This document shows, one piece after another, positions 386 through 30,665 of a stretch of 32,000 nt of DNA; within the stretch, counting starts at the first letter, position 1, and each line of letters opens with the position of its first letter. The notes under the pieces were generated by a model that did not search any database, had not been told where the DNA came from, and was given only the letters and a program-made list of their open reading frames with translations. The translations under genes and the position numbers were made by a program. Source of the DNA: Nitratidesulfovibrio vulgaris str. Hildenborough. GTDB taxonomy: Bacteria > Desulfobacterota > Desulfovibrionia > Desulfovibrionales > Desulfovibrionaceae. The stretch spans positions 2,760,001-2,792,000 of the forward strand of contig NC_002937.3 in the NCBI RefSeq assembly GCF_000195755.1, given 5' to 3'.

Positions 386-414
386 CCTCTGTTCCTGACC
401 CGTCATCCATCACG

Positions 415-447
415 AAACGGCCCCGGTATAGAACCGGGGCCGTTTTC
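415..447 (+). terminator. Rho-independent terminator of htpG
   Basis: AAACGGCCCCGG (415-426) pairs with CCGGGGCCGTTT (434-445) around loop TATAGAA. A T run at 443-446 sits 30 nt after the htpG stop. Confidence 0.7.
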
Positions 448-456
448 GCTCACATG

Positions 457-505
457 CCGATGACCAAAAGGAAGCGGAGGCTACTGCCTCCGCGACATGA
501 CGCAC
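457..505. repeat. Solo copy of the hairpin module that also forms the core of the 169-bp tandem repeat at 5035-5640
   Basis: GCCGATGACCAAAAGGAAGCGGAGGC-TACT-GCCTCCGCGACATGACGCAC aligns with GCCAATGACAAGAAGAAGCGGAGGC-TGGT-GCCTCCGCGACATGACGCAC of the array. The 8-bp stem GCGGAGGC/GCCTCCGC is at 474-481/486-493. On the minus strand the hairpin is followed by TTCCTTTTGGTCAT. Confidence 0.75.
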
Positions 506-652
506 ACACGCCAAGCGAACCATGCCACTCGGCGAATGTCTATGGGTGCATGGGCCGGGGCAGGCAGTGGCCCCATGTTCCGGTCGTTTCATGGTCCTTC
601 AGGTTCGTGACGACCCGAAGCAGCCTGCGGTCTGACAGGGCGAAAGCCCTGC

Positions 653-680
653 GTCATGCGTCATGCCTCATGCCTCAAGG
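653..680. repeat. 7-bp microsatellite (GTCATGC GTCATGC CTCATGC CTCAAGG)
   Basis: Direct reading of 653-680. It is immediately preceded by a CAGGGC-GAAA-GCCCTG tetraloop hairpin. Confidence 0.7.
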
Positions 681-783
681 AAGGGGCGGCCCTGCCTTCG
701 GCAAAACGGGGTGTGCTCCCCGAAAATCAAGACACCGTAAGGGCCCGGCGTTCGCATGGATGCTCGCCACGTAAGGGGCAGGC

Positions 784-1455
784 TCAAGGATGGGGCATCA
801 TGTCCGTACCCCAGCGGGCCATTCGCCTGCCAGAGTCCACATAGTGGTTGCGGATGGTGCTTTCGATGAACACCGGGTCGCGTGTGAGCATGGCCTCGAG
901 TACGACCTTGTGACGCCGGAGAACCTCTTCAGGGGTGAATGCCGTGCGCCAGTAACGGAACAGCAGGAATTTGGAGATGCCCTGACAGGCGCGACGCGAA
1001 AGTTCGACCAGAAGCTGGTTGTCCGTGCGCGAAAAGATGACGTCGTGGAAGGCCGTGTCGAGTGTCGCAAGTTCGTCCATGTCACCATCACGGGCCACAC
1101 AGTCTGCCATGCTGTCGACAACGGCCTTGAGTCTGGCGAAGTCGTCATCCGTAAACATGTGGATGGTGGAGGCAGCCGCAGCCCCTTCCAGCACACCACC
1201 CGTGAAATAGCTGTTGCGTATCTCTTTCGATGTCAACGTGGCGATGGACTTGCCGCGCTGTGGTGTGGAAACGATGAGGCCTTCCTGTACGAGGAGTTGT
1301 AACGCTTCACGGATGGGCGCACGGCTGATTGAAAGGCGCGAGGCGAGAAGCACTTCGTTGACCTTGTCACCCGGTGCGAATTCGCCAGCGAGGATGCGCT
1401 CCTTGATATATTCGGTAATCTGGTGCGAATAGGTCTGTTTGGTGATGCCCTGCAT
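784..1455 (-). CDS. GntR/FadR-family transcriptional regulator (winged HTH plus FCD-type C-terminal domain)
   Basis: The N-terminus has EVLLASRLSISRAPIREALQLLVQEGLI, typical of a GntR wHTH, followed by a helical C-terminal domain. I chose the ATG at 1455 (MQGITKQ...) because AGAGGAA lies 4 nt upstream. The tracked ORF start at 1527 adds an implausible N-extension. Confidence 0.85.
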   Translation of the reverse strand: MQGITKQTYSHQITEYIKERILAGEFAPGDKVNEVLLASRLSISRAPIREALQLLVQEGLIVSTPQRGKSIATLTSKEIRNSYFTGGVLEGAAAASTIHMFTDDDFARLKAVVDSMADCVARDGDMDELATLDTAFHDVIFSRTDNQLLVELSRRACQGISKFLLFRYWRTAFTPEEVLRRHKVVLEAMLTRDPVFIESTIRNHYVDSGRRMARWGTDMMPHP

Positions 1456-1533
1456 GCGTTCCTCTGTGCTGTTGTTCTTCGTGCTGATATCGGCACACCA
1501 GACCTGGGTCAAGCCGTGTGGCTGCATGACCCA

Positions 1534-1572
1534 ATATGAAAGGAGGCTGCCTCATGCAGCCTCCTTTCATAT
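1534..1572. other. Perfect 17-bp hairpin between the nhaC-like stop and the gntR-like start (possible terminator or processing site)
   Basis: ATATGAAAGGAGGCTGC (1534-1550), loop CTCAT, GCAGCCTCCTTTCATAT (1556-1572). It shares the GGAGGC/GCCTCC core with the repeat-family hairpins. No clean U run follows on either strand. Confidence 0.4.
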
Positions 1573-1598
1573 CGAGCGGTGGGGGGAGGCGCGAGCGG

Positions 1599-2999
1599 CT
1601 AGGCCGCTTCCGAGAGGGGTTCGGCATTGCCACCGAGCTTGCGGTTCCAGCCCGTGTAGGCCGAGAAGACCAGTACGGCGAGCAGTGCCCATGAATACGG
1701 GTTGTACAGGGCGGCACTGATGGGGGGAACGCTGATGCCGTAGGCTTCACCCGCACTCACCACGGCGGCGTACCATGCCGCGACGACAATATGCCACGGC
1801 AGCATGAAGAACACGGTGCAGACGGCGCAGTCCATGAGGTTGGCCCTGCGCGCAGGGGCCAGGTCGAACTTCTCGCCGACAGGGCGCACGAGCGAGGGAC
1901 CCACGAGAAGTTCCGCAGGCGCGTTGGCCGATATCGGAACGGAGGCGACGACGGTGACGCCGATGATGAAGAACTCCGCCTGCCTGACAGAGCGCACGAT
2001 GGCTCCCTCTGCGGCGTTGAGGATGCGCTTCATGATGCCTGTCTCGACGAGTATCTGCGTCACGGCGAGGATGAGGATGGCGAAGATGATGGCACCCACG
2101 ACACTGTTGATGCCATCTTCGATGATGCCGGTGGAAATGCCGCGCTTGGCAGGTATGCTGAACAACGTCTGAAGCGTCAGGTTGCCCGTGACCATGCCGA
2201 TGACGGCAGCACTCACGTTGCCGTAGATGAGTGACTCGATGATATGCCGCCCTGACAGGGCCGCGGCCACGACGACGACAAGGGCAAGCAGCATGAACGC
2301 ACCCAGCGGGTTCATGCGTGCCTGTATCTCGGGCAGGGGTTGCAGTGCTCCGCCCCCCCCGAAGACGAGGAACACGCCAGCCGCGATGGTGGCGGCTGCC
2401 ATGGCAAGCGGGAAGCGGCTGCGGACAACATCACGCATCGTCGCCCCTTGTGTGTAGGCGGAGACGATGGTGGTGTCGGAGATGGGTGCGAGGTTGTCGC
2501 CGAACGCCGCCCCCGACAGAATGGCGAGGCCCAGCATGGCCGGGTCTGCCCCGAGGAAGTGCCCGGCAGGATAGAGAACCGGAGTCAGGGCTATGCAGGT
2601 GCCCGTACTCGTACCGGTGCCAAGGGCAAAGAGCATGGCGGCCACGAACACCATGAGTGTGAATACGGCACCCTGTGCGCCTGTGGTCATGCCCATCCAG
2701 AGCAGGCCGTCCACAAGCCCCCCTGCGACCATGAGCTTGCCGAACACTCCGGCGAAAAGCCACGCAGTGACGATGACGATACCAGTCTTGTCGCCGATGC
2801 CACGCATGGCGGCCTTGCAGTAATCGGCTTTGTTGCGGGCAAAGAACAGCCCCAGTGTTATGGCAATCCATGCACACGCCCAGAAGGGTTTCGTGCCTCC
2901 ACGCTCCGCTACGGACAGCCATACAAGCCCACCAACGAGCGTGATGAGCGGAACGAGTCCCCCCAGTATGCCACCGTGCATTTCAAGGCGCTTTTCCAT
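1599..2999 (-). CDS. NhaC-family (Na+/H+ antiporter-type) polytopic membrane transporter
   Basis: 466 aa and hydrophobic throughout, with Gly-rich helices resembling the NhaC/C4-type transporter family as I recall it. ATG at 2999 has GAAGGAG 7 nt upstream. Confidence 0.75.
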   Translation of the reverse strand: MEKRLEMHGGILGGLVPLITLVGGLVWLSVAERGGTKPFWACAWIAITLGLFFARNKADYCKAAMRGIGDKTGIVIVTAWLFAGVFGKLMVAGGLVDGLLWMGMTTGAQGAVFTLMVFVAAMLFALGTGTSTGTCIALTPVLYPAGHFLGADPAMLGLAILSGAAFGDNLAPISDTTIVSAYTQGATMRDVVRSRFPLAMAAATIAAGVFLVFGGGGALQPLPEIQARMNPLGAFMLLALVVVVAAALSGRHIIESLIYGNVSAAVIGMVTGNLTLQTLFSIPAKRGISTGIIEDGINSVVGAIIFAILILAVTQILVETGIMKRILNAAEGAIVRSVRQAEFFIIGVTVVASVPISANAPAELLVGPSLVRPVGEKFDLAPARRANLMDCAVCTVFFMLPWHIVVAAWYAAVVSAGEAYGISVPPISAALYNPYSWALLAVLVFSAYTGWNRKLGGNAEPLSEAA

Positions 3000-3030
3000 G
3001 ATGTGCTCCTTCTATGCGAACCGTGATGTG

Positions 3031-3056
3031 AAAAGGGCACCACGCATGTGGTGCCC
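3031..3056 (-). terminator. Intra-operon intrinsic terminator/attenuator between the desulfhydrase gene and the transporter gene
   Basis: On the minus strand GGGCACCAC-ATGC-GTGGTGCCC (9-bp stem, 3035-3056) is followed by TTTT (3031-3034). It starts 5 nt after the upstream TAA stop and lies about 30 nt before the transporter RBS. Confidence 0.5.
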
Positions 3057-3061
3057 GGGGG

Positions 3062-4060
3062 TTACTTGAACGTATCGAGGTAGGCGTAAAGCGCTGGCGA
3101 TCCACCGGTGTGCAGGAAAAGCACATTCGAACCTTCGGCAAAGTAGCCGCTACGCACGAGGTCCACAAGACCGGCCATGGCCTTGCCCGAGTACACCGGG
3201 TCGAGCAGTATGCCTTCGGTCTGGGCCAGAAGACGCACGGCTTCGACCATGCTCTCGGTGGGCAGCGAATAGCCGGGGCCCACATAACCGTCAAAGCAGG
3301 TCACCGCTTCATCGGGGAACTCGCCACTCATGCCCACGCGCTGCGCCGTCTCGCGGGCCAGCTTGCGCACCAGTGCCTCCTGGTCGGCCTTGGTGCGGCT
3401 CACGTTGATGCCGGAGACAGGGATGTTGGCGTTGTTGCCCACCATGCCGACGACGATGCCGGCATGGGTCCCGGCGCTACCGCTGGGAACCACCATGTGA
3501 TCCACCTTGAGTCCCATGTCGAAGAGTTGCTGGAGGGTCTCCTGCGCGCAAGAGACATAGCCGGTGGCCCCGATGGGGTTCGATGCTCCACCGGGGATGA
3601 TGTAGGGAGTACGCCCTGCTTCCTTGAGGCGTGCAGCGAGTGCTTCCATTTCCCCCATCATGTTGGAACCGCCGGGCACGACGGTGATGCTCTTCACACC
3701 CATGAGCTTGAACAGGAAGTTGTTGCCCGAAGCTTCGGGCTTGTAGCTGCCCTTGACACGCTCCTCAAGGACGAGATGGCAGTCGAGCCCTTCCTTGACA
3801 GCCCACGACAGGGTCAGGCGGCAATGGTTGGACTGCACGGCCCCGCAGGTGATGATGGTGTCAGCGCCCTTGGCGAGGGCATCCGCCATGCAGAAGTCCA
3901 GCTTGCGGGTCTTGTTGCCCCCGGCGCAGCCGGGCAGCAGGTCATCACGCTTGATGAAGATGTTGACCTTGCCGCCCAGAGCCTTCGAAAAAGCCGGACA
4001 CGATTCGATGGGGGTGGGGTCCTTGACATAGCCACGTCTGGGAAAAACAGCGAGATTCAT
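3062..4060 (-). CDS. dcyD: PLP-dependent D-cysteine desulfhydrase / ACC-deaminase family enzyme (same fold family as L-cysteate sulfo-lyase CuyA)
   Basis: 332 aa. The N-terminal FIKRDDLLPGCAGGNKTRKLDF contains the family PLP-lysine motif (GGNKxRKL). ITCGAVQSNH and GGS...NPIG segments are present. GGAG lies upstream of the ATG at 4060. The substrate cannot be decided from sequence. Confidence 0.8.
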   Translation of the reverse strand: MNLAVFPRRGYVKDPTPIESCPAFSKALGGKVNIFIKRDDLLPGCAGGNKTRKLDFCMADALAKGADTIITCGAVQSNHCRLTLSWAVKEGLDCHLVLEERVKGSYKPEASGNNFLFKLMGVKSITVVPGGSNMMGEMEALAARLKEAGRTPYIIPGGASNPIGATGYVSCAQETLQQLFDMGLKVDHMVVPSGSAGTHAGIVVGMVGNNANIPVSGINVSRTKADQEALVRKLARETAQRVGMSGEFPDEAVTCFDGYVGPGYSLPTESMVEAVRLLAQTEGILLDPVYSGKAMAGLVDLVRSGYFAEGSNVLFLHTGGSPALYAYLDTFK

Positions 4061-4109
4061 GGTGTCTCCGTGTGTCGGTTGTATTGAATGGTGCGGCCTT
4101 ATGGCGCAC

Positions 4110-4499
4110 CTAGCCTTCGAGGGCGAAGATGGCTTCTACTTCGATGGTTCCTCCAAGGGGCAGGGCTGCCACCTGAATGGCACTGCGCGCCGGGAACGGG
4201 GTTGCGAAGTACTGTGCGTAGACGGCGTTGACAGCCTTGAAGTCCGCAAGGTCCGCCATGAAAACCGTGGTCTTGACGGCATGGTCGAGCGTGATGCCCG
4301 CAGCTTCTGCAATGGCCCGAAGATTGGTGAAGACCTGATGCGCTGCCGCTTCGATATCGTCCTTGATGAGAGTGCCGGTGGCGGGGTCGATGGGCAGTTG
4401 CCCTGAGACGAAGAGAAGACCTTGGGCACTGATGGCCTGAGAATAGGGGCCGATGGCGGCGGGTGCCTTTGTGGTGCTGATGGATTTTTTGGCTGTCAT
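4110..4499 (-). CDS. ridA: RidA/YjgF/UK114-family reactive enamine/imine deaminase
   Basis: MTAKKSISTTKAPAAIGPYSQAI...LFVSGQLPIDP...VKTTVFMADLADF..VN.VY...FPARSAIQVAALPLG..IEVEAI is a textbook RidA sequence. The ATG at 4499 has GGAG upstream. The tracked start at 4550 was rejected. Confidence 0.9.
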   Translation of the reverse strand: MTAKKSISTTKAPAAIGPYSQAISAQGLLFVSGQLPIDPATGTLIKDDIEAAAHQVFTNLRAIAEAAGITLDHAVKTTVFMADLADFKAVNAVYAQYFATPFPARSAIQVAALPLGGTIEVEAIFALEG

Positions 4500-4514
4500 G
4501 GCTACTCCGTTTTT

Positions 4515-4537
4515 TGTCGACTGTATAAATGTCGACA
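4515..4537. promoter_or_regulatory. Two GntR-type operator boxes (TGTCGAC-T and the perfect palindrome TGTCGACA) overlapping the likely ridA-operon promoter
   Basis: TTGTCGACTGTATAAATGTCGACA. Box 1 is at 4515-4522 and box 2 at 4530-4537. Both fit the GntR/FadR consensus (GT-Nx-AC palindrome). On the minus strand TTGTGA-N17-TTTATA overlaps the boxes, 15-40 nt upstream of ridA. Confidence 0.5.
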
Positions 4538-5034
4538 TTTTTAACGTCACAAGTCCGCCTTACGTGATTTGCTTCACAAGTGTCAACGGAAAAACTTCGA
4601 TGCGGCATCAGCGCGATGGCATGAGCCCTCAAGAAAAGGGCTCGTGCCCGACCTCGGTCAGTGTACCGACGACACCTTCAGGGTTGTGCCCGCAGTATTT
4701 CACTGTCTCTGCCGCCGGACGACTCTGGACGAGGCCCAAGGCAGCGTTCGGTCTGGCAGGCGTGGTGCCTGCCACAGCGTATCCATGACCTCCCGGCTTT
4801 TCCTTTATGACAAGGTCATCTGGCTTTCAGGCCCTTGTCACCGGGAGCTACTGGCCTCTTCACATGCCCCTGTCCTCGGCTTGCCGACGGGATGAAGACT
4901 GCGGTCGTTACGAAGCGAGAGCTCAACGTGCCACGGCTTTGCCTCGCCCCTGCCCCCCGGTACAATGAACTCAATGATCCGAATTTATGTAAAATACGGC
5001 AGAGTGAGCATTCTTCAAAAGCAGCACGCGCCCC

Positions 5035-5640
5035 GCTTCCGGCAGCGGTGAACCCTGCCGGCTCACTGTGCCGGGTCACTGCCTGCGCCAATGACAAGAA
5101 GAAGCGGAGGCTGGTGCCTCCGCGACATGACGCACTCGCGCAGGACGAATGAGCCCGGACGCCAATGACGATATCTCCGGCGCAGAGAACACGGCAGGCG
5201 TTCGCTTCAGGCAGGGGTGACCCCTGCCGGCTCACTGTGCCGGGTCACTGGCTGCGCCAATGACAAGAAGAAGCGGAGGCTGGTGCTCCGCGACATGACG
5301 CACTCGCGCAGGACGAATGAGCCCGGACGCCAATGACGGTATCTCCGGCGCAGAGAACAGGGCAGGCGTTCGCTTCCGGCAGGGGTGAACCCTGCCGGCT
5401 CACTGTGCCGGGTCACTGGCTGCGCCAATGACAAAAAGAAGCGGAGGCTGGTGCCTCCGCGACATGACGCACTCGCGCAGGACGAATGAGCCCGGACGCC
5501 AATGACGGTATCTCCGGTGCAAAGGACACGGCAGGCGTTCGCTTCCGGCAGGGGTGAACCCTGCCGACTCACTGTGCCTGGTCACTGGCTGCGCCAATGA
5601 CAAAAAGAAGCGGAGGCTGGTGCCTCCGCTTCTTTTTGCG
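5035..5640. repeat. Noncoding tandem repeat: 169-bp unit, three full copies plus a partial fourth ending in a perfect terminator
   Basis: The anchor CTGCCGG recurs at 5055, 5224, 5392 and 5561 (periods 169, 168, 169). Units differ by a handful of substitutions and one 1-nt deletion (GGTGCTCCGC at about 5281-5290). Each unit has two hairpins: CCGGCAGGG-GTGAA-CCCTGCCGG and GCGGAGGC-TGGT-GCCTCCGC. Confidence 0.95.
5602..5637. terminator. Bidirectional rho-independent terminator (last repeat copy), terminating the 5697-6248 gene on the minus strand
   Basis: AAAAAGAAGCGGAGGC (5602-5617), loop TGGT, GCCTCCGCTTCTTTTT (5622-5637). This is a perfect 16-nt inverted repeat with an A tract on one side and a T tract on the other, 60 nt downstream of the stop at 5697. 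Confidence 0.8.
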
Positions 5641-5696
5641 GGGATGGTCCGAGGAGTCCGGACGCCGCATTGCGGCTACGACGTACCGGAAAATAT

Positions 5697-6248
5697 CTAC
5701 GCCACGCGCTCTTCAAGGCGCACGCGGTCGAGGTCTACGACTACAGGGTCGATGAGGGTGAAACCGGAGGGGTTCGACCAGTTGAACTCATCCGCGGCAC
5801 GCCCTGCGTAGGTCACGTCACTCAGGGCGCTGAACCCTTCCGTCAGACACGGTGACAGGTCGAGTACACGTGCGGCAAAGGCATTGGCATCGAAGGAATC
5901 GACATTGCGCCACACCCATCTGTAGGTACAACGTTCGTCGGTGAAACCCATGACAGCCATGAACCGGGCACGCGAACCAAGGAAGAGTTCAGGATTCAGC
6001 GTCGTTCCCGTTGCCATCAGAGCCTTGGTGTCAAAAGGTACCGGCTGACCATCCACGGTCAGCTGAACAGTTGTCGCTGCATCGATACGCATACCGAAAT
6101 TCCGAGTGTTGCCCCGGCGCCACCAGTTCATGTACTTCTGTGAGTATATCTTGCGGCCGTTGGTGCGGATGTTTTCCGCAGTACGTGACGAGACGGGATG
6201 CAGAGCCAGGTCGCAGCTGCTACCGGTGAAAGTAAGGACGATATCCAT
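5697..6248 (-). CDS. Hypothetical protein, 183 aa, paralog of the 6824-7405 product (orphan family)
   Basis: MDIVLTFTGSSCDLALHPVS... shares blocks with the neighbour: SCD[LI]ALHPVS, YMNWWR[RK]GNTR.FGMR, SRA[RK][FY][ML]AV[ML]G, NPSGFTLIDP[VI]V[VI]DL. The ATG at 6248 has GAGAGG 7 nt upstream. No signal peptide or TM segment. Confidence 0.75.
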   Translation of the reverse strand: MDIVLTFTGSSCDLALHPVSSRTAENIRTNGRKIYSQKYMNWWRRGNTRNFGMRIDAATTVQLTVDGQPVPFDTKALMATGTTLNPELFLGSRARFMAVMGFTDERCTYRWVWRNVDSFDANAFAARVLDLSPCLTEGFSALSDVTYAGRAADEFNWSNPSGFTLIDPVVVDLDRVRLEERVA

Positions 6249-6823: not shown

Positions 6824-7405
6824 TCAGGCAGGTACCTTCGAAGAAGATCGCGACTCGGCTTCGACCTCACGCCGCACCTCGGCGAGGTCGATAACAATGG
6901 GGTCGATGAGGGTGAACCCGCTGGGATTGCACCACGAATCATCATCGGCGCATCTGCCATTGTAGAAGACGGAGTCGACGACATTGTAGCCTTCTGTCCG
7001 GAGAACGCGATCCCAGTTGAGAACCTGAAAGCGGAAGTTCTTCGGGTCGAAGTCCTGAACATCATTCCATATCCACTTGAAATTGCACCACTCATCGTCA
7101 TATCCAAGAACAGCGAGATACTTGGCGCGGCTTTCCAGATACATCCGGCGACGCACGGCATGCACATCGCGGTAAAGAAGCTGGTCGTCGAACGGGGTCT
7201 GCTTTCCGTCAACGTACAGGCGCACCATGCTGTCCGGCCCGACGCGCATGCCGAAGGTGCGAGTGTTACCCTTGCGCCACCAGTTCATATACTTTTCCGC
7301 GTAAATCGCCCGCCCGCGCTTACGTATGGTCTCGGCGGTCTGCGGAGAAACGGGATGAAGAGCGATGTCACAGCTTTGACCAGTGATTTCAAAGATGATG
7401 TTCAT
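6824..7405 (-). CDS. Hypothetical protein, 193 aa, paralog of the 5697-6248 product (orphan family)
   Basis: MNIIFEITGQSCDIALHPVS... The ATG at 7405 has GAGAGGGA upstream. Paralogy to the neighbouring gene supports this strand over the 257-aa antisense ORF 6794-7567. Confidence 0.8.
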   Translation of the reverse strand: MNIIFEITGQSCDIALHPVSPQTAETIRKRGRAIYAEKYMNWWRKGNTRTFGMRVGPDSMVRLYVDGKQTPFDDQLLYRDVHAVRRRMYLESRAKYLAVLGYDDEWCNFKWIWNDVQDFDPKNFRFQVLNWDRVLRTEGYNVVDSVFYNGRCADDDSWCNPSGFTLIDPIVIDLAEVRREVEAESRSSSKVPA

Positions 7406-8361: not shown

Positions 8362-9687
8362 ATGGCACACCAGAGCATCCCCGGACATGGCAAACGCTTT
8401 CCCGGCCAGCTAGGCATCGTCCTTCTGGTGCTGACTTTCGTTGTGGCAAGCGTCTGCGGGGCACATGCCTCCGAAAGGCTCAATGTGGTATCGGCGTTCC
8501 TGATAGACCAGAACAGCCGACGTGTGCTCTTCGAACAGAACGCTGACGCGCAGATTCCTCCCGCTTCGCTCACCAAGGTCATATCGATGTATGTGGCCCT
8601 CGACCATATCAGGGCCGGAAAGGCCTCTCTCGCAGACAAGGTCAAGATCAGCGCCCGTGCGGCCCGAACAGGCGGTTCTCGCATGTTTCTCACCCGCGGA
8701 GAGACTGTATCGCTTGACGAACTGCTTATGGGCATGGCTGTATCCTCTGGCAATGACGCCAGTGTTGCAGTGGCTGAGCATATCGCGGGCAGTACCGACC
8801 GGTTCGTACAACTGATGAACGCCAAGGCACGTGCACTGGGGATGACGGAAACGACATTCCGCAACGTCAACGGACTGCCTGCAGCGGGGCAGAAGACGAC
8901 AGCGCGAGACATGGGCAAGCTGGCAGTCAGCTATCTCACTGCCCATCCGCAGGCACTGCGCTACCATTCAACGCGCTTCATCAGACACAACAAGGTCATC
9001 ACGACCAACAAGAATCCCATGCTCGGCAACTGCGAAGGGGCCGACGGCCTCAAGACCGGCTGGGTATGCGCGTCGGGCTACAACCTCATATCCACTGTCA
9101 AACGGGGCAACACCCGCCTTGTTGCTGTCGTCCTCGGCGCGGAGAACAGTCAGGTTCGCGGTCAGGAGATGAACAGGCTCATCGACGCAGGCTACAGGTC
9201 GTTACGGGGTGAGGGGCCTTCAGTGGCTGCCGTCCTGCCCCGCCTCTCGCCTGCCGATTATCGGATCGACCTGCACAAGACCAACTCTCTCGCCTATGCC
9301 GAAGTGAGCAAACACAAGAAGAAGATCGCAGCCCGCAAAGGCAAACTGCGGGCAGGCAAGACTGGCTCCAAGCAGCACGCCTCGGCGCAGGTCAGCAAGT
9401 CCTCCAAATCATCCAAGGCCGTCAAAGGCAAATCTCCGGACAAGTCTGCAGCTACATCCAAGGCTGTCGCCACAGTGCGGCGAGAGAAAGCCAAGGCGGT
9501 TCCTTCGAACAAGTCTGTCCGGGCTACCAAGGTGCAGCAGGCCCGCAAGGCTGCCGTCGCCCGCAAGACAGAGACGAAAACGACCGTGAAACGGTCCAAG
9601 CCCGCCACCGCCGCTTCGACCAAGAAGACGGCAGCACCGCCTCGTACTCCCGTACAGCGCGCCGAACGCACAGACAAACGGGGCTAG
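8362..9687 (+). CDS. Serine-type D-Ala-D-Ala carboxypeptidase (PBP5/6, peptidase S11) with a Lys/Ala/Ser-rich C-terminal tail
   Basis: Signal peptide MAHQSIPGHGKRFPGQLGIVLLVLTFVVASVCGAHA. Motifs SLTK (SxxK), SGND (SxN) and KTGW (KTG) are in the correct order. The ATG at 8362 has GAGAGG upstream. The tracked start at 8095 was rejected. Confidence 0.85.
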   Translation: MAHQSIPGHGKRFPGQLGIVLLVLTFVVASVCGAHASERLNVVSAFLIDQNSRRVLFEQNADAQIPPASLTKVISMYVALDHIRAGKASLADKVKISARAARTGGSRMFLTRGETVSLDELLMGMAVSSGNDASVAVAEHIAGSTDRFVQLMNAKARALGMTETTFRNVNGLPAAGQKTTARDMGKLAVSYLTAHPQALRYHSTRFIRHNKVITTNKNPMLGNCEGADGLKTGWVCASGYNLISTVKRGNTRLVAVVLGAENSQVRGQEMNRLIDAGYRSLRGEGPSVAAVLPRLSPADYRIDLHKTNSLAYAEVSKHKKKIAARKGKLRAGKTGSKQHASAQVSKSSKSSKAVKGKSPDKSAATSKAVATVRREKAKAVPSNKSVRATKVQQARKAAVARKTETKTTVKRSKPATAASTKKTAAPPRTPVQRAERTDKRG

Positions 9688-11320: not shown

Positions 11321-12045
11321 CGCCCTTCCCCATGGACCGCATGACCGGCGACGTACGCATCCCAGCCTGCGCGCCGCAGTTCACAGGCGGGGCATGTGCC
11401 GCACCCGTACCCCCACGGATGCCGGACATCGCGCACACCCTTGTAGCAGGTATGGGAACGCTCGAGCACCAGTTCGACGAAATCCTGCCCGCCCTCATCA
11501 CGCGCCATGTCCCACGTCTGCGCCTTGGTCAGCCACATGAGCGGCGTGTGCACCACAAAGCGGGACTCCATACCCAGATTCAGGGCCACCTGCATCGCCT
11601 TCATGGCATCGTCACGGCAATCGGGGTACCCGGAGAAATCCGTCTCGCACACACCAAGGACAAGATGCCTGATGCCCTGCCTGTAGGCACATGCTGCCGC
11701 AGCCGTCAGGAACATGAGGTTGCGCCCCGGCACGAATGTGGAGGGCAGCCCGTTGCGACCCATCTCGATGGCCACGTCATGCGTCAGTGCCGTCTCGCCC
11801 AGTTCGCGGAAGAGCCCCATCTCGACGACGGTGTCCGTGCCGAGATGCGCTTTCCATCCGGGGCGGACGTCGCCGATGGCGGCAAGAACGTCCTGCCTGC
11901 ACTGCATCTCCACATCATGCCGTTGCCCATAATGAAAGCCGATGGTGGCCACGGTGCGGAAACGGTTGAGGGCCCAGCCGAGACACGTCGTGGAATCCTG
12001 CCCACCGGAAAAGATGACAAGGGCATTGCCGTCGCAAGAAGGCAT
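11317..12045 (-). CDS. queC: 7-cyano-7-deazaguanine synthase
   Basis: [14 protein letters not shown] (PP-loop SGGxDS) and C-terminal CYKG....[16 protein letters not shown] (Zn-binding Cys cluster). The ATG at 12045 has GGAGAA upstream. ATGA overlap with queE. Confidence 0.9.
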
Positions 12046-21335: not shown

Positions 21336-21360
21336 TTCCCGTCGCGCCTTGGCATCAGTA

Positions 21361-21548
21361 CCCCTGGAGTGTGCGTGATAGATATGCCATCGCTGACCTC
21401 ACAAGCTTGAAATAGGGCATCGGTACGGTGGACCGGTGTGCACGCCCGGCATGACCGGGTAGCCTGAAGGCCCGCCCGAGAAGCCCCCCTGGTCAACACC
21501 AGGTCCTGCTTTGGTATGTCACACGGCTCTCCGGGGCCACTGGCCCCT
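21361..21548 (+). ncRNA. ssrS: Candidate 6S RNA
   Basis: It lies in the 390-nt noncoding gap after zapA, the classic ssrS neighbourhood. The 5' CCCC-U-GGAG-UGUG...GAUAUGCC pairs with the 3' GGUAUGUC-ACAC-GG-CUCC-GGGG (21361-21388 with 21513-21536), giving a long interrupted closing helix of about 176 nt. Internal hairpins are CCCGG-CAUGA-CCGGG (21445-21459) and CCUGG-UCAACA-CCAGG (21488-21503). GGGGCC-ACU-GGCCCC follows at the 3' end. Confidence 0.6.
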
Positions 21549-29466: not shown

Positions 29467-30665
29467 CGCACGACGCCCGTCGCATCACCATCGCACCGGA
29501 CGACGCGGGTCGACGCCTCGATGCCGTTCTCGCGCCTCTGTGCCCCGGCATGGGACTGCGCGGCAGACGCAGGCTGTGCGACGAAGGGCTTGTTCTGGTG
29601 AATGGGCACCCCCGCCGCCCCGGACATCATGTGGCCACCGGTGACGAGGTCGTGCTGGTCGACGCCGCAGACGGCACGACCGGGCAAGGCAAGGCCGGGC
29701 CGAGTACGACCGGGCCGAGTACGACCGGGACAGATACGGCCGAAGCAGCCATGGCAGCCCGCACCTCGGCGGGCACGACATCGCCGGAGGGGACTGCGTG
29801 TGACGCAGAAGCCCTCCTACCCGCACCCGGCCCCGTTGCCGACCCGACAGGTCACCCGAAAGGCGAAGACCCGCTCGCCCCCCTTCGCCCCGGAGGAGAG
29901 GCCCACGCTGCGGGACTCCGCCTCATCCTCCCCCTTGACGGTGCGACAGACTCTCCTCCCCCCACGGGCGGGGTTCCCCGTCTGGTGGCCGTGTACAAGC
30001 CGGGGGGGCTGCACTCTGCCGCACTCGCGGGAGGGCGTGCGCCGAATGCCGAGAACCTGCTGCCAGCCCTGAAGCTTCTCAACAGGCTAGACGGCCCCAC
30101 GTCCGGCATCCTCATGCTGGCGGGCGACACTGCGGGTGAACGTCAATGGCGGAAAGCGGAGGATGAGGGCGGAACACGCAAGACCTACCTTGCCGTCTGC
30201 ACAGGGCGGCTTGAGAGGGGCACGGTCGTCCGCGCCGCGCTGGACACGGCACGCCGCACCGTGACGCGGGTCCGGCCCTGCGACACGGACGACAGGCTGC
30301 GCCACACCGAGGTCGTGCCGCTTGCCCACTTCAGGCTGGGCGACCTCGCGAACCTCATCACCGACGACACAGCAGGTGCACCGGCATGCGATGAGACCGT
30401 CACGCTGGTGTGCTGCCGCATCCGCAAGGGCGCACGCCACCAGATTCGTGCCCACATGGCTCACATCGGCCACCCCCTGCTGGGCGACGACGTGTATGCG
30501 GCCCCGGCATCGCCCCCTCCGGGGCGGATGCCCCTGTTCCTGCATCACAGCCGCATCACCCTGCCGGGATTCTCGGCGGCATGCCTTCCTTCATGGCTGG
30601 AATGCCTGCCCGACGCCGCAGCGGCTGCCGCCCGGCGCATCCTCCTCGACGACGAGAGGCCCTGA
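29463..30665 (+). CDS. RluA-family pseudouridine synthase with an S4 domain and a low-complexity insertion of about 100 aa
   Basis: An S4-like N-terminus (GRRLDAVL...LVLVNG..RRPGHHVATGDEVVL), the catalytic motif NRLDGPTSGILML, KTYLAVCTG, and GARHQIRAHMAHIGHPLLGDDVY. ATGA overlap with the upstream kinase stop. Confidence 0.8.
   Translation: MTHDARRITIAPDDAGRRLDAVLAPLCPGMGLRGRRRLCDEGLVLVNGHPRRPGHHVATGDEVVLVDAADGTTGQGKAGPSTTGPSTTGTDTAEAAMAARTSAGTTSPEGTACDAEALLPAPGPVADPTGHPKGEDPLAPLRPGGEAHAAGLRLILPLDGATDSPPPTGGVPRLVAVYKPGGLHSAALAGGRAPNAENLLPALKLLNRLDGPTSGILMLAGDTAGERQWRKAEDEGGTRKTYLAVCTGRLERGTVVRAALDTARRTVTRVRPCDTDDRLRHTEVVPLAHFRLGDLANLITDDTAGAPACDETVTLVCCRIRKGARHQIRAHMAHIGHPLLGDDVYAAPASPPPGRMPLFLHHSRITLPGFSAACLPSWLECLPDAAAAAARRILLDDERP
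29696..29730 (+). repeat. 15-bp in-frame tandem duplication (CGGGCCGAGTACGAC x2.3) encoding GPSTT-GPSTT-G
   Basis: Direct reading: units at 29696-29710 and 29711-29725, then a partial unit. Confidence 0.85.

Follow-up and report, generated by a model that had tools for sequence, protein, structure and literature searches.

A variable-number 169 bp tandem repeat in Nitratidesulfovibrio vulgaris with probable roots in the terminator of a neighboring gene

The mycobacterial interspersed repetitive unit-variable-number tandem repeat (MIRU-VNTR) loci of Mycobacterium tuberculosis are intergenic minisatellites. Bacterial VNTR and MIRU loci consist of head-to-tail intergenic repeats of tens to hundreds of bp that vary in number between strains and have no demonstrated product, and their units are held similar by unequal recombination or slippage. 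A tandem array that resembles these loci in all such respects is described here from Nitratidesulfovibrio vulgaris str. Hildenborough (hereafter D. vulgaris). It was analyzed within a 32,000 nt stretch of the chromosome (NC_002937.3, positions 2,760,001 to 2,792,000), which is called the window and whose own numbering is used throughout. The array comprises 3.5 copies of a 169 bp unit and fills part of a 1.2 kb gap between two minus-strand genes, one that encodes a 183-aa conserved hypothetical protein and one that encodes RidA. Unlike the known VNTR and MIRU loci, it has a long unit, the unit can be traced to the terminator of the upstream gene, and it is found at one locus plus one severed copy instead of being dispersed. 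It is considered fairly probable that the array is a lineage-specific minisatellite that derives from this terminator and is kept uniform by unequal recombination.

Other described elements share part of this picture. Tandem terminators such as rrnB T1-T2, as well as bidirectional terminators, resemble the array in having serial GC-rich hairpins with U tracts on the strand of the upstream gene, and the terminator at the head of the array is itself symmetric, with A and T tracts. The additional terminators of the array differ from those of rrnB in being duplications of a whole unit, variable in number and in some cases damaged, and they follow a terminator that is already very strong. Tandem arrays of small RNA (sRNA) genes are represented by NsiR1 in Nostoc/Anabaena, LhrC1-5 in Listeria and PrrF1/2 in Pseudomonas. 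These are also intergenic direct repeats of ~100-200 bp, each ended by a terminator hairpin; however, each repeat of the known arrays has its own promoter, a conserved body and shown transcripts, whereas in the units described here no promoter can be detected and the closest relative shows no conservation of the body. Finally, repetitive extragenic palindromic (REP) sequences and the bacterial interspersed mosaic elements (BIMEs) built from them, enterobacterial repetitive intergenic consensus (ERIC) sequences, Correia-type repeats and repeats similar to miniature inverted-repeat transposable elements (MITEs) are imperfect intergenic palindromes near gene ends, and the unit likewise forms a long imperfect hairpin. 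Those families have tens to hundreds of dispersed copies; the present repeat occupies two neighboring sites in the DNA searched and has no terminal inverted repeats or target duplications.

Tandem Repeats Finder reports a single strong array in the window, at 5034-5629, with a period of 169, 3.5 copies, 96% matches and a score of 1094. Together with a repeat-family search, an alignment of the units and nhmmer, this places the array at 5034-5640 on the minus strand. The units are bounded by alignment at 5034-5202, 5203-5370 (168 nt), 5371-5539 and 5540-5640 (partial), with few substitutions between them, and the nucleotide missing from the second unit was lost within a hairpin termed hairpin 2 (GCGGAGGCTGGTG-CTCCGC). 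An earlier reading of the window, referred to as the original prediction, had described a near-identical 169 bp array of 3.5 copies with a 1 nt deletion in copy 2, and this description is borne out, with starts at 5034, 5203, 5371 and 5540. As the array sits between two minus-strand genes, it is read biologically on the minus strand, and the copy that the original prediction listed last is the first element past the stop codon of the 183-aa gene.

The array is noncoding. A 25-codon plus-strand open reading frame is whole in copies 1 and 3; in copy 2 it is cut short at 12 codons by a stop, and in the severed copy it is out of frame by 1 nt, as had been foreseen; in addition, the unit length of 169 is not divisible by 3. 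Protein coding was rejected on these grounds, and a translated 121-aa open reading frame of the array has zero protein matches. Clustered regularly interspaced short palindromic repeats (CRISPR), iterons and integron attC sites were also considered and discarded, given that the array lacks unique spacers, cassettes and an integrase and that its unit is too long.

The number of units is polymorphic among D. vulgaris strains. From the stop of the 183-aa gene to the start of the RidA gene the distance is 691, 860-862, 1029 or 1197 nt, depending on the assembly. These lengths differ by steps of 168-169 nt and correspond, across 11 assemblies, to 0, 1, 2 or 3 full units plus a half unit; among 13 assemblies the number of copies extends from 0.5 to 3.5 or more. 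Finished genomes also disagree, with 2.5 copies in CP000527.1, which is that of strain DP4, and 3.5 copies in CP116246.1 and in the window. Thus the head-to-tail direct repeats, the variable copy number and the lack of coding capacity that characterize a VNTR or minisatellite are all present, and the proneness to copy-number change that had been suggested for this array is realized. A polymerase chain reaction across 4900-5750 should yield a 169 bp ladder, and the locus could be used as a typing marker for D. vulgaris. The array is also a hazard of known position for short-read and metagenome assemblies, in which it gives rise to contig breaks and scaffold gaps.

Three variants of the unit are found, termed a, b, and b with the hairpin deletion, and their order differs from strain to strain. 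Such shuffled orders are expected from unequal crossing-over or gene conversion. The variant with the deletion in hairpin 2 is also found in units of assemblies L001, L002, L003 and L006, and this 1 nt deletion, which weakens the hairpin, is thereby retained in units of five assemblies. Assembly L001 displays an additional 13 nt internal duplication (GGCACAGTGAGCC GGCACAATGAGCC) in its first half unit (11830-11856).

The origin of hairpin 2 is found at the head of the array. Sequence comparison identifies it as the intrinsic terminator, here called T0, of the minus-strand 183-aa gene (5697-6248). T0 lies at 5600-5639 on the minus strand, 57 nt past the stop of the gene (5697), and displays an 18 bp perfect stem (AAAAAGAAGCGGAGGC / GCCTCCGCTTCTTTTT), a 4 nt loop, and A and T tracts; an extended stem of this kind, with both tracts, had been noted in the original prediction. 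The predicted folding energy is -35.1 kcal/mol (z -6.6), and a second fold gives -32 kcal/mol (z -9.9). Because the structure is symmetric, T0 is potentially bidirectional.

Orthologous loci of the 183-aa gene were collected via its protein family. In five other lineages the orthologous gene is followed by a T0-type hairpin (GCGGAGG...CCTCCGC). In L015, a locus that was reached via a 96%-identical copy of the 193-aa paralogue of the gene, the hairpin is AAAAAGAAGCGGAGGC-TTAC-GCCTCCGCTTCTTTTT. In the remaining lineages, in order of identity to the 183-aa protein, the loop is GAAA in L026 (86%), the hairpin is CATGAAGCGGAGGTC-GCAA-GACCTCCGCTTCATG in L021 (79%), the loop is ATAT in L025 (69%), and in L022 (62%) the hairpin is GGCGGAGG-TTTTT-CCTCCGCC followed by a T tract. 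At 55% identity, in L027, the terminator is unrelated to T0. Across the orthologous loci 85.5% of the stem cells are paired, versus 45-62% when the partners are slid. The loops ACCA, TTAC, GAAA, GCAA and ATAT differ throughout, and three stem pairs in L021 are altered on both sides in a compensatory manner. Loops that are free to vary together with compensatory stem pairs indicate that the structure is under selection and that T0 is the founder of the repeat. The suggestion that the units represent terminator modules downstream of a gene therefore holds as regards their origin, hairpin 2 being the orthologous terminator of the 183/184-aa gene. A functional element has in this way given rise to a minisatellite whose steps can be followed: a terminator that was duplicated, amplified and homogenized, with one unit then probably severed by a block of genes and diverged.

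The copies of T0 within the array are of lesser strength. Hairpin 2, as the core GCGGAGGC-N4-GCCTCCGC, is found exactly at 5104, 5441, 5610 and 474, that is, four matches versus 0.09 expected, and a terminator scan of the minus strand calls a hairpin with a T tract for each of units 1-3 and for the solo copy at 474, in accord with the terminator-like units first described. The minus-strand copy of unit 3 (5441-5460) displays an 8 bp stem followed by TTCTTTTTGT and a folding energy of -17.6 kcal/mol, and that of unit 1 (5104-5123, minus strand) an 8 bp stem followed by TTCTTCTTGT. Where the original prediction placed this hairpin in every unit, unit 2 (5273-5291, minus strand) carries the deletion and is left with 6 pairs, a 7 nt loop and a weak fold (-10.5 kcal/mol, z -1.4). 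The internal copies are thus of moderate strength at best and stand behind no gene. The other hairpin that was proposed for each unit, hairpin 1 (CCGGCAGGG-GTGAA-CCCTGCCGG), is perfect only in copy 3 (5376-5398, -19.8 kcal/mol). Imperfect copies begin near 5039, 5208 and 5545, and copies 1, 2 and 4 each have a mismatch or variant. Hairpin 1 is degenerate in the relative L015, which shows that it is not conserved.

A solo partial unit lies away from the array at 455-564 on the minus strand, and it consists of a segment M', hairpin 2 and the T tract. It matches unit positions 53-165 with an nhmmer E value of 6.6e-9, amounts to two-thirds of a unit and has a terminator-like call at 493-474 on the minus strand. 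A solo copy had been noted at 457-505; it exists and is longer than was thought. The copy is kept in all strains with a loop change only. It lies past the GntR gene and forms the last hairpin before the terminator (421-445) of the convergent gene htpG. Outside the hairpin it is ~70% identical to the unit, compared with ~96% among the units of the array. A severed and diverged unit set beside a homogenized array constitutes an internal demonstration of concerted evolution.

Between the solo copy and the array lies a block of ~4.5 kb (565-5033, minus strand) that is missing from all relatives examined. It consists of a 534 nt noncoding stretch and the genes for RidA, a pyridoxal phosphate (PLP) enzyme, an NhaC transporter and a GntR regulator. 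The solo copy is homologous to the unit from unit position 4 onward, which is the exact point at which the array stops on the other side of the block. In L015, L016 and L017 the order past the 184-aa gene is T0, ~60 nt similar to a segment Y of the unit, 55 nt that cannot be aligned, a second hairpin 2 and then directly the htpG terminator, with ~150 nt separating T0 from the second hairpin. L015 thus has 1.5 copies (T0-Y-M*-T) and no RidA-GntR block. The segment between its two hairpins fails to align with the M segment of the unit, so that only T0 and the next 60 nt correspond; in agreement, an nhmmer profile of all units recovers from the loci of the relatives nothing beyond T0 and the 60 nt that follow it, in L015 and in L026. 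Overall, the array is seen in D. vulgaris only, and one close relative has a diverged version of 1.5 copies.

The interval from the terminator of the 184-aa gene to htpG (386-5696 of the window) is a hot spot of gene-content change. The position right after T0 is plastic, with different cargo genes in each lineage. A pentapeptide-repeat gene is found there in L021, and a gene for a solute-binding protein in L022, where htpG is inverted. In L026, AT-rich DNA of foreign appearance begins ~16 nt past the T tract of T0.

The terminator ancestry of the repeat and the absence of the block from the relatives are shown by these comparisons, and from them a history of the locus can be proposed in which the mechanism of recombination and the direction of the insertion event are inferred. 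An early duplication would have set a second terminator hairpin ~165-169 nt downstream of the first, and an array of at least 1.5 copies would already have been present before the lineages split. The direct repeats might then have served as a substrate for unequal homologous recombination or replication slippage, by which whole 169 bp units would be gained and lost, and the exchange of units would hold them ~96% alike in concerted evolution. Later, in the D. vulgaris lineage, the four-gene block of ~4.5 kb (565-5033) would have been inserted at a unit boundary. This would have severed the distal unit, which now stands alone beside htpG and may have drifted to ~70% identity outside the hairpin. 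Recent expansion and concerted evolution had both been offered as explanations of the near-identity of the copies. Since the array is older than the 4.5 kb insertion and the lineage split, concerted evolution fits better than a recent origin.

The array probably evolves close to neutrality. Low constraint is indicated because a damaged hairpin persists, because the closest relative shows conservation of neither hairpin 1 nor segment M, and because the adjoining 534 nt are highly variable. The units are predicted to have some termination activity on the basis of their hairpins and T tracts, and at most the array might insulate the RidA operon as a stack of back-up terminators placed ahead of the promoter of this operon, downstream of the 183-aa gene. 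Taken as a whole, the array is genuine yet, as bacterial minisatellites go, fairly ordinary, with nothing that indicates an RNA or protein product of its own.

Several observations weigh against this interpretation. On the minus strand, unit columns 33-84, i.e., the ~50 nt on the 5′ side of the internal hairpin, vary at one site versus ~6 expected among 18 distinct units (rough Poisson p ~0.02), which hints at either constraint or recent homogenization. The minus-strand fold of the unit, a long imperfect palindrome centered on hairpin 2, is better than that of shuffled sequences (z -4.6). The arrangement with two hairpins (1.5 copies) is retained in two lineages, and so long a retention of the second hairpin module could mean that it is useful. 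Short-read or metagenome assemblies, in which repeats of this kind can be collapsed, are the source of most of the copy numbers; in L002 the array contains a gap of 100 N (11944-12043), where the true number may be 4.5 or more, and the contigs of L013 and L014 end inside it. In addition, the finding that copies occur only at the array and the solo site applies to the DNA searched, namely the window, the 20 kb loci of 10 strains and the JGI metagenome matches.

The invariant stretch and the stable fold are also points for an array of sRNA genes, which the original prediction had proposed. In such an array a promoter in each unit would drive minus-strand transcription of an RNA of ~75 nt, in which the invariant GUCAUUGGCGUCC...CAUGUC body is followed by hairpin 2 and a U tract; the dose of sRNA would depend on the copy number, and the solo copy would represent a gene paralogous to the units. 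Consistent with this, a terminator-like hairpin with a T tract ends every unit and the solo copy on the minus strand, the 50 nt ahead of the hairpin are near-invariant among the 18 unit variants, the minus-strand z value is the one just given, and the solo copy and the type-a units have in common GCCTGCC and TGCACC blocks that have the -24/-12 spacing of sigma-54 promoters and lie ~12 nt before the invariant stretch. However, a consensus scan, which unusual promoters could escape, finds no sigma-70-like site inside any unit on either strand. Sigma-54-like sites occur at chance level (60 found versus 62 expected); those in one type-a unit and in the solo copy have three mismatches each and both carry GC in place of the essential GG at -24, and the -12 block is altered in the type-b units. 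The putative RNA body is unrecognizable in L015 and ~70% conserved in the solo copy, and the terminator hairpin is damaged in several units and has not been purged. There is no Rfam match, and the locus is not mentioned in the D. vulgaris sRNA literature examined. On balance an sRNA array is unlikely, and its strict form, in which every unit is an independently transcribed ~75 nt sRNA gene with an unusual promoter of sigma-54-like spacing common to the solo copy, an invariant 50 nt body and its own terminator, is more doubtful still. If such RNAs were made, strains would differ in regulator dosage through a VNTR, with one to four or more sRNA genes, and a riboregulator would have been born from a terminator. 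A long structured noncoding RNA of the opposite strand is likewise improbable, to a slightly greater degree. It would start near 4973-5000, pass through the repeats and end at 5600-5639, and its repeated hairpins and GGA-containing loops would make it a sponge or scaffold with a valency that depends on copy number. A sigma-70-like site (TTGCCT-16-TACAAT, 4939-4966, plus strand) does point toward the array, a TAAAAT/TAAGAT box is found near 4990 in all strains, the symmetric T0 could end plus-strand transcripts, and the plus-strand fold of the unit has a z of -3.1. Yet just 3 of the 11 strains have the promoter-like site intact, the other eight having CACAAT and a 15 nt spacer, and the site lies in the most variable region of the locus; it is probably non-functional. 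Moreover, 0.5-copy alleles exist, no known RNA family matches and hairpin 1 is not conserved in relatives.

The remaining explanations concern DNA rather than RNA. The array and the solo copy bracket the 4.5 kb block as direct repeats, and the cargo just past T0 differs in each lineage (the RidA block, the pentapeptide-repeat gene, the solute-binding protein gene and the AT-rich DNA of L026). This would fit an attachment site, with the hairpin 2 module targeted by site-specific or hairpin-directed insertion and the array and solo copy representing decayed junction repeats of an island. Such a scar has a small chance of being the correct explanation, as the block has no integrase, transposase or mobility gene, the flanking repeats are ~110 nt long with ~70% identity and no short exact core, L015 has the two hairpins without an insert, and no second copy of the hairpin flanks the cargo of L021. 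It would also account for the solo copy but not for the tandem amplification. A protein-binding array on ATGAC / GTCATTGGCG sites, either operator or decoy, was another proposal of the original prediction. The motif GCCAATGAC is found seven times versus 0.39 expected, in every case within the array, and GTCATTGGCGC, immediately past T0, is kept in L015 and L026 and in part in L022. As the seven occurrences are copies of one repeat, though, they are not independent events and neither is the enrichment; the motifs are direct and non-palindromic, with spacings of 36-38 and 95 nt that are out of helical phase, the likely local GntR operator is another palindrome (TGTCGACA, 4515-4537), and 0.5-copy alleles exist here as well. 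Binding sites are for these reasons a very unlikely basis for the array. An assembly error in the number of repeats might be suspected from the contigs of L013 and L014 that break in the array and from the gap in L002, but the units carry diagnostic substitutions and are consistently joined, and the array is found in the finished chromosomes CP000527.1 and CP116246.1 and in more than 10 independent assemblies. The chance that the array is an artefact is accordingly slight, the lowest assigned to any explanation. A minisatellite derived from T0 remains the preferred interpretation.

Distant-mode BLASTN of the array against the phage and plasmid collections returns nothing, as does a scan for the hairpin in viral contigs. 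Among 185,579 species genomes, a scan that did not return D. vulgaris itself found ATGTCGCGGAGGC-N4-GCCTCCGC twice, by chance, in Lachnospiraceae and Pirellulales. From a metagenome scan, in which the JGI contig of L001 was missed, two contigs and no others were recovered, and both represent the array and solo sites. Rfam models above the gathering threshold are limited, for the whole window, to 6S RNA, and a permissive Rfam scan of 4500-5700 gives only sub-threshold chance hairpin matches to T0 (E at least 0.11). The locus is undescribed in literature on DVU264x locus tags, D. vulgaris sRNAs and tandem repeats, a search that did not cover the main transcript-mapping paper for strain Hildenborough (PMC3187205). 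Of other promoter types, GCCGATGA and GCCAATGA look by eye like a sigma-28 -10 element; this candidate was dropped since there is no TAAA at -35.

The 183-aa gene whose terminator seeded the repeat is supported by the list of open reading frames, gene calls and homologues, and its product belongs to no Pfam family. It had been called an orphan, a label that does not hold: the family has more than 100 members in Desulfovibrionaceae. Its 193-aa paralogue (6824-7405, minus strand) also belongs to no Pfam family; this protein is encoded identically on CP000527.1, CP116246.1 and many metagenome contigs with the same gene order. The two paralogues are ~51% identical, as judged from the 96%-identical homologue P0001. 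In about 10 members of the 183-aa family, a NifU-like domain (PF01592) is fused at the N terminus, and this suggests a possible link of the family to iron-sulfur cluster assembly.

On the other side of the array, Pfam matches identify RidA (4110-4499), which heads a minus-strand run of four genes, a PLP enzyme of the D-cysteine desulfhydrase type (3062-4060), an NhaC-type transporter (1599-2999) and, at the end of the run, a GntR/FCD regulator (784-1527). The convergent htpG gene occupies 1-385. Two GTCGACA boxes lie 15 nt apart at 4515-4537 on the minus strand (aaTGTCGACAtttatacaGTCGACAaaa), a short way upstream of the RidA start (4499), and the first of them is the perfect palindrome TGTCGACA. 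Operators of the T-GT-N-AC-A type are used by FadR-like GntR regulators, and the palindrome is a likely candidate operator for the GntR/FCD regulator of the same run. No other part of the locus varies nearly as much as the noncoding stretch at 4500-5033 (534 nt), which has a nucleotide diversity (pi) of 0.029 and 37 segregating sites in 537 columns among 11 strains; the genes beside it have a pi of 0.001-0.006, which makes the noncoding stretch ~5-20 times more diverse. Within it, near 4618-4650, there is a conserved hairpin, GGCACGAGCCC-N9-GGGCTC(G/A)TGCC.

A run of heptamers, GCGTCAT GCGTCAT GCCTCAT GCCTCA, is present at 650-676 on the plus strand between the GntR gene and the solo copy, and its GCGTCAT motif also precedes hairpin 2 in every unit. 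Elsewhere in the window, the 6S RNA (SsrS) gene was located at 21358-21541 on the plus strand by a full-length match to Rfam RF00013 (64.2 bits, gathering threshold 46.4). Tandem Repeats Finder also detects small tandem repeats within long open reading frames, at 29676-29742 (15 nt, 4.5 copies) and 8978-9012 (18 nt, 1.9 copies).

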